Virus genome (UHGV): UHGV-1657835
Reading direction: 5' to 3' (one strand)
DNA: 14,166 nt
Source of the DNA: a virus
The translations under genes and the position numbers were made by a program. The first letter of the stretch is position 1. Every line of letters begins with the position of its first letter. Below the pieces are notes generated by a model. That model saw only the letters and a list, made by a program, of their open reading frames with translations, made no database searches and was not told where the DNA came from. Below are positions 6,283-12,084 of this stretch, in pieces.

Positions 6283-6319
6283 TTTCTCTGTTTTAAAAAT
6301 CAATATTTATTAGAGCAAT
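6283..6319 (-). promoter_or_regulatory. P1 C1-operator-like 17-mer plus a conserved A/T block; putative repressor-controlled promoter for the leftward operon
   Basis: Minus-strand ATTGCTCTAATAAATAT (plus 6303-6319) matches ATTGCTCTAATAAATTT at 16 of 17 positions. It is followed after 2 nt by ATTTTTAAAAC, the same arrangement as the copy at 8444-8460. TTGCTC could serve as a -35 with a -10-like hexamer 17 nt downstream. Confidence 0.55.
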
Positions 6320-6825
6320 TATTGTTGATGAAGAAGCGCGTTTTCATACTCCCTGACCATTAACGTAAGCACGCCGTGCCTCCTGAAAACACGCGCCACT
6401 TCAATCTTATCTTCCAGCGCGAACGCGATTTTACTTAGACCAATTTTCTTAAGGAGATCAATCTTTGCTGGGCCGTCATTTCTGTCATCGGTGGCAGGAC
6501 GCATAGATAGCAAAGGCTCAGCCCCATTTGTTACGTGCTTACGCAACCAAGCTCGTGTTTTATCCCTGGCTATCTCACAGCGCCCGGTTACAAACCAGAG
6601 CGTGTAAATGCTGGACAACTGGCGCACCATATCAATAACTGGAGTGATGGGAGCATCAGTGTCACAGGCAAGGTTAAACTCGTTCCAGTGCTCTGTTAAT
6701 GCACCTTTGCCAGGTGGTGGAAGTAAATGCAGCCTGTCTTCCGTTGCCTCTGATATTGTTCCATCAATATCAACTATGACGATATACGGACGTTCCTGGT
6801 GTGCGTGTTTATTGAAAATACTCAA
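6319..6825 (-). CDS. HAD-superfamily phosphatase, polynucleotide-kinase 3'-phosphatase-like
   Basis: HAD motif I in YIVIVDIDGTIS (DxDGT), motif II in WFVTGR, then a conserved Lys and an acidic motif (ALEDK). TTG start at 6825 with GAGGAGGG RBS. Confidence 0.8.
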   Translation of the reverse strand: MSIFNKHAHQERPYIVIVDIDGTISEATEDRLHLLPPPGKGALTEHWNEFNLACDTDAPITPVIDMVRQLSSIYTLWFVTGRCEIARDKTRAWLRKHVTNGAEPLLSMRPATDDRNDGPAKIDLLKKIGLSKIAFALEDKIEVARVFRRHGVLTLMVREYENALLHQQ

Positions 6826-6843
6826 ATGCCCTCCTCATTGGAC

Positions 6844-6877
6844 GAAAAAAATGCTGGTGGGCGCACTCCACCAGCAT
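6844..6877 (-). terminator. Rho-independent terminator for the upstream leftward operon; palindrome carries Chi on both strands
   Basis: ATGCTGGTGG-gcgcact-CCACCAGCAT (10-bp arms) followed on the minus strand by seven T. It lies between the stop of the 420-aa gene (6898) and the start of the HAD gene (6825). Confidence 0.6.
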
Positions 6878-6897
6878 TAAAAGTGACACTGTAACTG

Positions 6898-8160
6898 TCA
6901 GCGAACGTAAATAGTGCCGCCGTTCTCTTTTTCCCATGCATCGCTACGTGCATAGCAAACATCGAGAAGTCTTCTTGCCGCTGTTTCCTCTAAACCCAAT
7001 TCGACAACCAACTGCTCATGACGGCGGGTAACCACATCAAACAGGGTATGCAGCCCTTTAGCTGCCAGATCATCAATAAATTCCGGTTCGAACGGCAGCT
7101 CTGCCTCTGCCAACATAACCTCTTGCGCCCACTCAACTCGACGGACCAGTTCCGGGCGGCGGCTTTCCATCTCTTTACAGATCAATTCATGGAAGAACTC
7201 TACCCAACCTTCCGGCTGGAACTCGCGGAAAATGGCCAACGGCTGGAAGTTTGGCATCAACCATTCGTTGATCCGGATATCAATGGCATAGCCCATGTCG
7301 CAGCAGAACTGATAAGCAAAGTCCAGCTTAGAAACGATATAAGGACGCTCGTTATTGAACTCTTTAGGCGATGAGATCCCATAAGCCAGGAGGCGCGGGA
7401 AGAAGGAGATTTGCCCTAACGTCGGATGAAGTTTGCTTGCAGGGAAACGGCGCTCAGTAATGCCATACATTTCCTTCTTGAGCGTCGCAAATTTGGCATT
7501 CTCATTAACCAGCGCGGTAACCTCTGCTTTTTTATTAGCAAATGCCACGCGCGCCTCGCTTGCATCTTTAATAGTTTTTTTGAGCTGTTGGTTAAGGTCG
7601 GCAACCTGCTTACGCAGTTCCTGTCGCTCGCTTTTAGCTTTGTTATAGCGTTTCTCAAGGTTAAAAGGATCAAGTTTCATGATCTCTTTATATTGAGATT
7701 TTAGCGTTGAAATCTGTGAGTTCCGCAGTTCAACCATCGCGGTCATTTCATTGAGTTTTGTTTCCAGCTCAATGCTTATACGTTCGGCATTATCAGCACG
7801 CTGGTTGGCGTCATGCGTCGCATCGTCGATCGCGTCCTGTTGCTGGCGTTTCAAATGTTCAATTTCCAGCTGAAGCTCTTCAATTTCTTTACCCTTCAGA
7901 CCGAGATCCAACTGCATATTTTCAGCTGCATCTACCAGGGAGTTATGGCTATCAGCTTCTGCGTTATAAACATCAATAAGCTGTGCGTGAAGCATCTCCG
8001 CTGACTGAACCGCATTATCAAAAAAACGCGCTGTGAGGTCATCACAACTAACGCGGCGTTGCGCGGCCCGGATGTTCTGGATAATGGCCGGGATACCGGC
8101 ATTCAGGACGTCAGGGATAGATACATTTTCGATTGATTGGTTTTGTGCTGAAGTGCTCAT
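6898..8160 (-). CDS. Hypothetical protein (420 aa): long N-terminal coiled coil plus C-terminal globular domain
   Basis: ATG 8160, one nt after the upstream TGA. Residues about 60-250 are heptad-like and charged; the C-terminal 170 aa are Trp/Phe-rich. No catalytic motif recognised. Confidence 0.8.
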   Translation of the reverse strand: MSTSAQNQSIENVSIPDVLNAGIPAIIQNIRAAQRRVSCDDLTARFFDNAVQSAEMLHAQLIDVYNAEADSHNSLVDAAENMQLDLGLKGKEIEELQLEIEHLKRQQQDAIDDATHDANQRADNAERISIELETKLNEMTAMVELRNSQISTLKSQYKEIMKLDPFNLEKRYNKAKSERQELRKQVADLNQQLKKTIKDASEARVAFANKKAEVTALVNENAKFATLKKEMYGITERRFPASKLHPTLGQISFFPRLLAYGISSPKEFNNERPYIVSKLDFAYQFCCDMGYAIDIRINEWLMPNFQPLAIFREFQPEGWVEFFHELICKEMESRRPELVRRVEWAQEVMLAEAELPFEPEFIDDLAAKGLHTLFDVVTRRHEQLVVELGLEETAARRLLDVCYARSDAWEKENGGTIYVR

Positions 8161-8161
8161 T

Positions 8162-8380
8162 TCAAAGTTCCGTATTAGCTTGTGCTTCGGTCATTTTTCC
8201 TAAGTATGAAGGAGGAAGGACGACGCAATTTGTATCCAGTCCCTCACCTATGGCAGCCTGTAAAATTCTGGCTAAGGTGAGTCTCTTATTGCGATACCTG
8301 GTGATGACATGCCTGATACCGCCGGTCGGCGTAACAAAGGCGATCAGCCAGTAGTGATATTTCCGTCGGAATGGCCACAT
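8162..8380 (-). CDS. Hypothetical small basic protein (72 aa)
   Basis: ATG 8380 with AAGGTG RBS 5-6 nt upstream. It is the first gene after the operator/inverted-repeat region and is coupled to the 420-aa gene. Confidence 0.7.
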   Translation of the reverse strand: MWPFRRKYHYWLIAFVTPTGGIRHVITRYRNKRLTLARILQAAIGEGLDTNCVVLPPSYLGKMTEAQANTEL

Positions 8381-11020: not shown

Positions 11021-11117
11021 TCATTTCAGCGATTACAGGGTCCACTACAGCATCTGTTTCCTGTTCATTACGCGGCATGATCGATGCCAGCGATTCATAA
11101 TTAGCCTTGGATGACAC
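10962..11117 (-). CDS. Possible small acidic protein (51 aa) in the gap between the VRR-NUC and paralog-1 genes
   Basis: GTG 11117 with GGGAGA RBS 5 nt upstream. Translation is MSSKANYESLASIMPRNEQETDAVVDPVIAEMNARLEAEFAAENEHTTQGD. It overlaps the 5' end of the paralog-1 ORF, so either it or that gene's long N-terminal extension is real, not both. Confidence 0.3.
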   Translation of the reverse strand: MSSKANYESLASIMPRNEQETDAVVDPVIAEMNARLEAEFAAENEHTTQGD

Positions 11118-11183
11118 GATTATTCTCCCGATGTTAATGTGCGCTATATCAAATGGCGCATATGTACTAATTAATTTATTATT

Positions 11184-11762
11184 TTAAGCAGCATACAACC
11201 ACTTGTCGCCGTTCAATACATGCTCAATAGCCTCACCCTTTTTAAGGCTCATGTATTCCAGGATGGCGGTTATCGCTTGTTCTGCACCATACGCAAGAAC
11301 GACGTAGTAACCTTCCTCTCTAAGCCTGCGCATCCAGGCGATCTGCTCTTGCGTCGGGGCTTTACAATTTGGTTCTTTAAGCTCAATTCGCATGCCGTGA
11401 TAAATACCGCATGCTTTATCGAGACTCATGTCCGGATAACCTTTTTTCTGCCCTTCAGCCTTCATTTTCCCGGCGGTTGCTTTTGAACGTTTCCCTCCGT
11501 TAGGCGTTGCATGCAACAGCTCATAGATGTCAGGGTGCTTGCGTTCGAAGTAATCAAAAATGAAAACCTGCTCGAAGTGCTCGCAATTTCCGTCGCGCAG
11601 GTCTGGGTTCTTTGCCAGTGCTGCAAGTGCCTTCGCATGTGGAGAAACTTCTTTTACCGGCGCAAGCGATAAGAATGGATCCTTTTTGGTTTTTGGCCTG
11701 GACCGCCCCTTATTTCGACGCTCACTAAAAGCCTGAAACTCTTCCTCAGTAAAGCGCAACAT
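11184..11762 (-). CDS. VRR-NUC domain nuclease
   Basis: HATPNGGKRSKATAGKMKAEGQKKGYPDMSL...GMRIELKEP...GYYVVLAYGAEQAITAILEYM matches the VRR-NUC pattern as I recall it (HAxPNGG...KAEGxKKGxPD...E-x-K). ATG 11762. Confidence 0.85.
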   Translation of the reverse strand: MLRFTEEEFQAFSERRNKGRSRPKTKKDPFLSLAPVKEVSPHAKALAALAKNPDLRDGNCEHFEQVFIFDYFERKHPDIYELLHATPNGGKRSKATAGKMKAEGQKKGYPDMSLDKACGIYHGMRIELKEPNCKAPTQEQIAWMRRLREEGYYVVLAYGAEQAITAILEYMSLKKGEAIEHVLNGDKWLYAA

Positions 11763-11764
11763 AA

Positions 11765-12010
11765 TCAGTCAAATCCTGCCGGTCGCATGCCATATTTACG
11801 CTGTTTTGCGGCCTGCTCTTCCCTGTGCCATTGCGCACATTCAGCGTCACAATAAATGCCTGATTCAATCGATTCATTGCAGTAACGACACTTCCCTGTA
11901 AATACCTGGCTCACGACCTGTGCCTGCTTTCTGATGTTATCGATGGCCATGTCTTTGAGAGCTTCTAACTGATTCATGCTCAGCTCTGCATCATCAACAC
12001 GTTCTGCCAA
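11765..12010 (-). CDS. Small zinc-ribbon protein; first gene of the leftward operon
   Basis: CRYCNESIESGIYCDAEC (C-x2-C-x9-C-x3-C). TTG start at 12010 with AAGGAA RBS 6-7 nt upstream; its stop is 2 nt before the VRR-NUC start. Confidence 0.7.
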   Translation of the reverse strand: MAERVDDAELSMNQLEALKDMAIDNIRKQAQVVSQVFTGKCRYCNESIESGIYCDAECAQWHREEQAAKQRKYGMRPAGFD

Positions 12011-12067
12011 TTTTGTTTCCTTGTGAAGAACCTACTTAAGGGCAGAATGATACATTTCACAATCAAA

Positions 12068-12084
12068 ATTGCACTAATAATTTT
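12068..12084 (+). promoter_or_regulatory. C1-operator-like site in the divergent control region; putative repressor-controlled promoter for the rightward operon
   Basis: ATTGCACTAATAATTTT matches the consensus at 15 of 17, within a 146-bp AT-rich divergent intergenic region. TTGCAC could act as a -35 with TAAGTT 17 nt downstream. Confidence 0.45.

Follow-up and report, generated by a model that had tools for sequence, protein, structure and literature searches.

The window analyzed here, a 14,166-nucleotide stretch of the virus genome UHGV-1657835, is organized into five transcription units, as judged from its ORFs and annotations. On the minus strand lie the operon downstream of Op88, which is the P7 'hea' operon, a mosaic accessory-gene block (2222-6124); the pmgR-pmgS-pap unit, downstream of Op86a and Op86b (6319-8380); the pmgN-pmgO-pmgP-ppp-pmgQ unit, downstream of Op83 (8462-11117); and the pmgL-pmgM unit, which runs leftward from Op82 (11184-12010). 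Genes 26, 25 and a truncated 7 (baseplate/tail) run rightward from Op82 on the plus strand (12157-14111). From 6100 to 12200 the genes leave five gaps (6125-6318, 6826-6897, 8381-8461, 11118-11183 and 12011-12156, from the ORF list and annotations), with others upstream, so an earlier note on this DNA was mistaken in placing four repeated 17-mers in its "only three" intergenic control regions. The same note saw three operons under master-repressor control; the C1 operators stand, but the units are better counted as five.

This stretch is part of a P1/P7-type plasmid prophage. Consistent with the proposal that it derives from a P1-like phage or plasmid-prophage, the nucleotide comparison with P1 and P7 suggested in the earlier note revealed strong similarity, with 98.2% identity to P7 (AF503408), the nearest phage, across 93% of the window and 97.6% identity to P1 (AF234172) across 72%. 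The nearest plasmid, the Escherichia coli IncY plasmid pJIE250_3, is 99.1% identical across 99% of the window and encodes a "phage repressor protein C1", and 74 complete E. coli genomes cover at least 80% of the window. Gene order is shared with both phages, as it would be in a P1-like/IncY plasmid prophage. Downstream of Op88 the gene content is that of P7, whereas P1 has pmgT-U-V in place of the P7-type accessory block; P7 in turn carries IS903 at the region matching window positions ~1150-1400 and a longer upf89.5, neither of which is found in the window. The record CP057733.1 is 100% identical over the Op86 region but in another context, with an hsd system after pap. An Rfam scan of the window gave no match. 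The window begins with the end of an ISKox3 element (1-55), whose insertion site is the LexA box preceding humD, and finishes with the end of an IS1 that truncates tail gene 7 (14112-14166), and with IS elements at both ends and gene 7 cut short, the prophage may be defective.

A motif search of the whole window on both strands, allowing up to three mismatches to ATTGCTCTAATAAATTT, returned exactly four matches, with 1, 3, 3 and 2 mismatches, and thus bore out the coordinates and scores (16/17, 14/17, 14/17 and 15/17) first reported for the 17-mers. Our null model of 200 dinucleotide-preserving shuffles averaged 0.10 matches, and none of the shuffles attained four. The shared core noticed earlier is equally firm, the exact sequence ATTGCWCTAATAA being present in all four sites against 0.10 matches expected. 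The C1 consensus given in the earlier note proved correct: ATTGCTCTAATAAATTT is quoted verbatim in PMC8546580 and is also the majority consensus of 15 annotated P1 operators, all from outside this region. A weight matrix trained on these 15 operators, a scan the earlier note had advised, selected the same four sites; their scores of 20.3-25.9 bits fall inside the training-set range, and the shuffle-maximum score has a 95th percentile of 16.9 bits (mean 11.8, sd 2.7). Further matrix matches at 1121-1137, 6428-6444 and 11172-11188 (9-11 bits) fall within shuffle noise and were rejected. The four sites have the invariant TGC.CTAAT core and the asymmetric 17-bp match to ATTGCTCTAATAAATTT that mark C1-controlled operators. 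The earlier note had been ready to give up its reading if P1 similarity were lacking or the consensus wrong; all three points at issue were tested, and none turned out that way.

The four sites are in fact the already catalogued, already known C1 operators Op88, Op86a, Op86b and Op82. They correspond base for base to features labeled "protein_bind: phage repressor C1" in the curated P1 and P7 records, and alignments show them to be positional orthologues of the phage operators with 0-1 nt differences; the GenBank notes trace Op88 back to the original entries M25414 and X98146, and Op82 to X87824. P1 has its operators at the same places relative to pap, pmgR/pmgQ, pmgN/pmgM and pmgL/26. A literature search on Op82, Op83, Op86 and Op88, with the primary operator papers outside its scope, found no relevant match; a P1vir transcriptome paper treats C1 operator sites as standard map features and makes no mention of pmgR, pmgT or ppp.

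Op88 (P1 OpmgT; P7 Op(hea)) lies at 6303-6319 on the minus strand (ATTGCTCTAATAAATAT, 16/17, 25.9 bits), its position 1 overlapping the pap stop codon (6321-6319); it is identical to P7 Op(hea), and its sole difference from the P1 operator is at position 16 (A for C). Op86a (P1 OpmgRa; P7 Op(sht[a])), at 8444-8460 on the minus strand (ATTGCTCTAATAATTCC, 14/17, 20.5 bits), starts 1 nt past the pmgQ stop codon, and its 17-mer aligns without a difference in P1, P7 and pJIE250_3. Inverted with respect to it is Op86b (P1 OpmgRb; P7 Op(sht[b])), at 8395-8411 on the plus strand (ATTGCTCTAATAAAAAA, 14/17, 20.3 bits), which is likewise identical in P1. Op82 (P1 O26; P7 Op(26)), also identical in P1, occupies 12068-12084 on the plus strand (ATTGCACTAATAATTTT, 15/17, 24.1 bits), separating pmgL-pmgM from the divergent 26-25-7 unit; the predicted sigma-70 promoter positions of pmgL overlap it, the late promoters lie downstream, and it is invariant in 37 of 40 P1-like IMG/VR contigs.

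Absent from the earlier list is a fifth operator, the orthologue of Op83 (P1 Oppp; P7 Op(hdm)), at 11161-11177 on the plus strand within the gap 11118-11183 (TATGTACTAATTAATTT, 12/17). Its score of 13.4 bits is within the shuffle-maximum range (mean 11.8, sd 2.7), compared with 19.3 bits in P1 and 19.2 in P7. Relative to P1 it carries two substitutions (C1T and C5T) that cost 6 bits, the second changing the near-invariant C5 to T, such that the window has TATGTAC... where P7 Op(hdm) keeps TATGCAC.... This weakened allele is present in 13 of 43 P1-like IMG/VR contigs. Op83 sits just downstream of a minus-strand promoter-like site ahead of pmgN, GCGACA-17-TAAAAT (11209-11181), and is followed by ATTATTTT, as is P1 Op99ab. 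A weak inverted half-site at 11172-11188 would fit the geometry of a bivalent operator, but its 10.7 bits are within noise.

Beyond the 17-mers, the earlier note reported an identical 11-mer 2 nt after the sites at 6303 and 8444. The 11-mer ATTTTTAAAAC does occur exactly twice in the window (6290-6300 and 8431-8441, both minus; 0.03 expected), each copy starting 2 nt past an operator, Op88 and Op86a, respectively. The resulting ~30-bp module is real, though better read as an operator plus promoter/T-tract than as a longer repeat, ATTTTTAAAAC consisting of a T-tract and TAAAAC. The P1 annotation places the predicted promoters P2pmgT, P1pmgT, PpmgR, P1pmgL and P2pmgL over the operators. Carried over to the window, P2pmgT would have its -35 (TTGCTC, 6318-6313) inside Op88 and its -10 (TAAAAC, 6295-6290) after a 17-nt spacer, P1pmgT would use an alternative -35 that abuts the Op88 3' end (TTGATT, 6303-6298), and the -10 of PpmgR (TAAAAC, 8436-8431) would also form part of a hairpin 5' arm. 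In predicted P2pmgT and PpmgR, operator positions 2-7 hold the -35 and positions 25-30 the -10, the same positions used by the annotated sigma-70 promoter P1ban at P1 Op72a, whose -35 TTGCTC is likewise inside the operator. The hexamers are weak (TTGCTC matches at 3/6 and TAAAAC at 4/6 positions, without T at position 6), and a generic consensus scan, which found four promoter-like sites in the window versus 9.2 in shuffles, detected none at threshold at Op88, Op86a or Op82 and only the site adjoining Op83. Because the scan missed the annotated promoters at these three operators, the promoter positions given here are derived from the P1 annotation and from spacing considerations.

Between Op86a and Op86b lies a conserved hairpin (8408-8435, minus strand) whose 11-bp stem (AAAACGUGAUG / CAUCACGUUUU) closes a 6-nt loop and leads into a U-run. 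At -14.5 kcal/mol (z = -6.05), it is more stable than any of 200 shuffles, and it has the appearance of a terminator serving the upstream pmgN-pmgQ operon. The two operators flank it in a 66-bp unit in which the hairpin 3' arm and U-tract are complementary to the 3' A-run of Op86b. The stem is kept by compensatory changes in the Cronobacter phage JK004 and in a second IMG/VR lineage, and the whole Op86a-hairpin-Op86b composite may be maintained by such substitutions. Op86a and Op86b resemble the bivalent P1 operators Op72ab (Obanab) and Op99ab (Oc1ab) in presenting two inverted C1 sites at one promoter; however, the 17-mers of the bivalent operators overlap by 6 bp, as that class requires, while Op86a and Op86b are 32 bp apart with the hairpin in between, and we therefore rejected their assignment to this type. 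A fixed 66-bp composite of interleaved terminator, promoter and inverted operators is a tentative alternative description.

How the T-tract should be read bears on the nature of the ~30-bp module. By sequence comparison, a T-tract at positions 20-25 is general among C1 operators. Among the 16 monovalent operators of P1, 11-13 have T at each of positions 21-25, the column information is 0.73-0.98 bits where the null has its 99.9th percentile at 0.75, and the upstream flank shows no conservation; in JK004, operators average 3.8 T of 6 at positions 20-25 versus 1.4-2.0 in control windows. In a -10 element the critical -11 A would fall at position 26; this position is not conserved (8/16 in P1, 5/21 in JK004). 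It is conceivable, if doubtful, that the module is an extended recognition site or bending element whose T-tract serves C1/Lxc and not a -10, though the operators share ancestry in part, as paralogues or orthologues, which makes these columns non-independent. The -35 elements of Pdmt, P4cre, P1pmgT, Plpa and P2c4, moreover, start at operator positions 15-17, which alone yields T-rich positions 17-22. The T-tract was also considered as a vestigial inverted half-site and rejected, as positions 18-25 should then read ATTAGAGC, the sequence expected from bivalent geometry, instead of T5. For DNA recognition by C1 and Lxc there is no structure or Pfam family, and PDB and Pfam searches with C1 gave no match.

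One might argue that no specific repressor is involved and that the 17-mers merely reflect AT-rich promoter or terminator DNA, or repeats arising by chance, given their AT-rich composition, their location in AT-rich intergenic DNA and their overlap with predicted promoter hexamers. Yet G4, C5 and C7 are invariant in the otherwise AT-rich motif, and it recurs in ~20 copies in P1 and at ~20 sites with the same core in JK004, a distant relative with 54% G+C whose C1 is 76% identical. The JK004 sites include orthologues of Op88, Op86a/b and Op83, with Op86a and Op86b at the same 49-bp offset as in the window. In phage D6, for which the phage search found no C1 homologue, no operator site was present in the 16.6-kb locus examined. 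Together with the shuffles and the annotation of these sites as experimentally defined operators in the P1 and P7 records, the chance reading is already refuted by statistics and orthology.

A less radical alternative accepts the operators as C1-type by descent but places them in an IS-riddled, defective P1 remnant without c1, where the operons would be constitutive or silenced by other means. In keeping with this, IS ends disrupt the humD LexA box and gene 7, neither IS junction is spanned by any record in the phage, plasmid and complete E. coli genome collections searched, and the Op83 allele is weakened. IS ends at both window borders, however, are typical of a short-read contig break and are uninformative about the remaining replicon; the four strong operators are preserved without a difference from their counterparts in functional phages, the nearest plasmid carries c1, and the weakened Op83 allele is common. 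We consider such an orphaned state unlikely. The reading we favor, at a probability of roughly 95%, is that the four 17-mers and the degenerate fifth at 11161-11177 are operators for the C1 repressor in a P1/P7-type plasmid prophage, an assignment drawn from how well the sequences match, their orthology, their excess over chance and their conservation in a distant relative.

The C1 operators of P1 were mapped in the late 1980s. C1 binding and C1-dependent repression have reportedly been demonstrated at P1 operators (Eliason & Sternberg 1987; Citron et al. 1989), and the operators are annotated in the P1 genome record AF234172 (Lobocka et al. 2004, J Bacteriol 186:7032). C1 binding is taken here from annotation and literature on P1, and because c1 is outside the window (in relatives it lies ~6 kb past the left window end), we infer repression in this element, along with the presence of C1. 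In a lysogen, C1 would bind each asymmetric site, with Lxc enhancing binding, and shut off the sigma-70 promoters heading successive transcription units: Op88 would control the accessory 'hea/pmgT' operon, Op86a and Op86b together pmgR-pmgS-pap, Op83 pmgN-ppp-pmgQ, and Op82 both pmgL-pmgM and the divergent 26-25-7 unit. Op88 and Op86a would themselves carry the -35 (TTGCTC, positions 2-7), with the 11-mer supplying the T-tract and, 17 nt on, a -10, so that C1 bound there would block access of RNA polymerase. The hairpin between Op86a and Op86b should block read-through from the upstream operon, and as transcription from PpmgR is predicted to begin within the hairpin, its transcript would escape the terminator. 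Inactivation of C1 by Coi or Ant would then allow the promoters to fire.

The value of these results is mainly one of annotation, marking where the lysogenic master repressor would shut off four or five units that contain accessory, head and tail genes. Small additions that could guide re-examination of DNA recognition by C1 and Lxc are the Op83 allele, the T-tract and the Op86 composite.

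By megablast against phage records, the window is 98.2% identical to P7 over 93% and 97.6% identical to P1 over 72%, bearing out the P1-like origin proposed in the earlier note. The best plasmid match, Escherichia coli IncY plasmid pJIE250_3, is 99.1% identical over positions 56-14117, and at least 80% of the window is present in 74 complete E. coli genomes. Judged by these alignments, the window is a P1/P7-type plasmid prophage segment, spanning the humD/LexA-box region, the pmg and ppp genes, and tail genes 26, 25, and 7. The block at 2222-6124, downstream of Op88, is mosaic and P7-like rather than P1-like, lying where P1 has pmgT-U-V; it includes lambdoid-type genes (ead/Ea22-like), and parts of it (3322-5308) show 96% identity to Stx-converting phages. 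Within this block, the ORF at 2581-3462 encodes 293 aa, the same as in pJIE250_3, while P7 upf89.5 has 432 aa.

Searching the whole window for ATTGCTCTAATAAATTT with up to three mismatches returned exactly the four sites described previously, with the same strands and match counts: Op88 (6303-6319, minus strand, 16 of 17), Op86b (8395-8411, plus, 14 of 17), Op86a (8444-8460, minus, 14 of 17), and Op82 (12068-12084, plus, 15 of 17). Shuffling gave a mean expectation of 0.10 matches, with four reached in none of 200 shuffles, and every one of the sites contains the proposed common 13-mer, ATTGCWCTAATAA, without mismatch. The consensus given in the earlier note equals the majority consensus of 15 annotated P1 operators from outside this region, and PMC8546580 independently gives the same sequence. 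Under a log-odds matrix trained on those 15 operators, which themselves score 7.8-27.5 bits, the four sites score 25.9, 24.1, 20.5, and 20.3 bits; the best score per dinucleotide-preserving shuffle of the window averaged 11.8 bits (95th percentile, 16.9). In the curated P1 (AF234172) and P7 (AF503408) records, the orthologous positions are annotated "protein_bind, phage repressor C1": Op88 corresponds to P1 OpmgT (formerly Op88) and P7 Op(hea), and Op86b, Op86a, and Op82 correspond to P1 OpmgRb, OpmgRa, and O26, each a C1 feature in both records. In alignments, Op86a, Op86b, and Op82 show no difference from P1 or P7, whereas Op88 is the same as in P7 and one base off P1. On sequence and annotation, both the original observation and its reading as C1 operators are correct; this set of P1/P7 C1 operators is textbook material, already annotated and already known. 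The sites had also been placed in the only three intergenic control regions, but ORFs and annotations give five intergenic gaps between 6100 and 12200. The loose threads, all modest, are a conserved T-tract after the operators, an interleaved terminator/promoter/operator unit at Op86, and a weakened allele of a fifth operator, Op83.

Op83, absent from the earlier note, lies between pmgN and pmgM and is annotated as Oppp in P1 and Op(hdm) in P7. Its orthologue here, TATGTACTAATTAATTT (11161-11177, plus strand), matches the consensus at 12 of 17 positions and scores 13.4 bits, below the 19.3 of P1 and the 19.2 of P7; the drop is due to a T in place of the near-invariant C at position 5. Relative to P1, the substitutions are C1T and C5T. 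The same allele is found in pJIE250_3 and, of the 43 P1-like IMG/VR contigs covering the site, in 13. Directly after Op83 stands ATTATTTT, exactly as at bivalent Op99ab and at Omat, which creates a weak inverted half-site (11172-11188); it overlaps Op83 by 6 bp, as the two sites of a bivalent operator do, but its 10.7 bits fall in the range of shuffle noise.

The 11-mer ATTTTTAAAAC has only two copies in the window, both 2 nt downstream of a minus-strand operator, as reported. Its final six bases, TAAAAC (6295-6290 and 8436-8431), are the -10 of the predicted promoters P2pmgT and PpmgR, which P1 annotation places at operator positions 25-30, 17 nt beyond a -35 TTGCTC at operator positions 2-7. 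The annotated sigma-70 promoter P1ban at P1 Op72a is arranged in the same way (TTGCTC ... TAATAT). At Op88, P1 annotation gives a second predicted promoter, P1pmgT, whose -35 TTGATT adjoins the operator's 3' end; in either layout, C1 bound at the operator would cover the -35 region. As these hexamers are weak and a generic promoter scan reported none of the three, the promoter assignments are putative and annotation-based. At position 12099-12104, that of the -10 of P1 late promoter LPpmgL, the minus strand reads AACATT vs AATATT in P1, P7, and pJIE250_3, so that of the four aligned sequences only the window has the substitution.

The proposal that operator and 11-mer form a 30-bp module holds in part: the identity is real, but it is a special case, since a T-tract at positions 20-25 follows C1 operators generally in P1 and in Cronobacter phage JK004, a distant relative. 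When all 16 monovalent P1 operators are aligned together with flanking sequence, 11-13 of them have T at each of positions 21-25 and 10 have G at position 28, with no signal in the 15 upstream positions or beyond position 31; because the operators are akin by descent, such column statistics overstate independence. In JK004, positions 20-25 average 3.8 T of 6, vs 1.4-2.0 in control windows; the position-28 G enrichment is not repeated there and is seen in P1 only. Conservation is lacking at position 26, where a -10 hexamer would have its key -11 A. The T-tract could come from -35 hexamers that begin at positions 15-17, from a -10 element, or from a longer C1/Lxc contact.

Op86a (minus) and Op86b (plus) are inverted and 32 bp apart, and the sequence between them forms an 11-bp stem with a 6-nt loop (8435-8425/8418-8408, minus strand) followed by a U-run (-14.5 kcal/mol, z = -6.05). 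The A-run behind Op86b's deviation from consensus (…TAATAAAAAA) is the complement of the stem end and U-tract, and the predicted PpmgR -10 overlaps the hairpin's 5' arm. Read-through RNA from the pmgN-pmgQ operon would therefore meet a complete terminator, while PpmgR transcripts, predicted to start about 7 nt past the -10 in the loop, would lack the 5' arm and so continue past. The 66-bp Op86a-Op86b unit (8395-8460) has the same length in JK004 (66972-67037) and in nearly all IMG/VR contigs from a two-operator pattern search that returned 119 loci. Paired changes maintain the stem in two diverged lineages, the arms being ACGTGATG/CATCACGT in the window, ACATGGTG/CACCATGT in an IMG/VR lineage, and AAGCATGGTG/CGCCATGTTT, with two G-U pairs, in JK004; these compensatory changes, in a small sample of three lineages, support a functional hairpin.

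Two further hairpins were noted. That at 6248-6270 (ACATGCCGCG...CGCGGCATGT, about -17 kcal/mol) is strong, and the plus-strand T-run behind it makes it terminator-like for transcription against the Op88-controlled operon; we found no convincing plus-strand gene end there. It sits within the 5' leader of that minus-strand operon, and in pJIE250_3 a 135-nt CDS is annotated across it. Between pmgS and pap lies an intrinsic-terminator-like hairpin (6850-6878, minus strand) whose 11-bp stem precedes a T7 run, pointing to possible partial insulation of pap from the pmgR-pmgS transcript.

The repressor gene c1 is not within the window, and both window ends are IS sequences. Positions 1-55 are not P1-like and match the end of ISKox3 (ISL3 family) beside a transposase in Klebsiella pneumoniae plasmid pC11-215kb, as well as about 1300 other plasmids. 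The 55/56 junction falls upstream of humD, inside the LexA box that controls humD and lxr in P1, and no record in the phage, plasmid, or complete E. coli genome collections crosses it. At the other end, 14112-14166 is an IS1 terminal inverted repeat (matching annotated IS1/InsB, including P1's own IS1) that cuts tail-stability gene 7 after about 116 codons, leaving an ORF of 122 codons (13765-14133) vs 242 aa in P1, so this prophage copy may be tail-defective. The IS ends may simply mark the end of the contig, or the prophage may be defective. These features would also fit genuine C1 sites orphaned in a defective remnant that has lost c1, but we consider such a loss improbable.

In the established P1 immunity system, described in part in PMC8546580, the master repressor C1 binds dispersed asymmetric operators; Lxc (Bof) strengthens this binding, and the Coi and Ant proteins inactivate C1. 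In pJIE250_3, the C1 gene lies about 6 kb outside the position of the window's left end. The JK004 C1 homologue is 76% identical, and about 20 sites in that phage share the operator core, among them orthologues of Op88, Op86a/b, and Op83; for phage D6, the phage collection gave no match to C1, and nothing in the 16.6-kb locus examined scored above 12 bits. These correlations support a scheme in which C1 would hold off five units in the present element: the accessory operon at 2222-6124 (minus strand) through Op88, pmgR-pmgS-pap through Op86a and Op86b, the pmgN-pmgQ unit, with the Ser/Thr phosphatase gene ppp, through Op83, and, through Op82, pmgL-pmgM leftward and 26-25-7 rightward.
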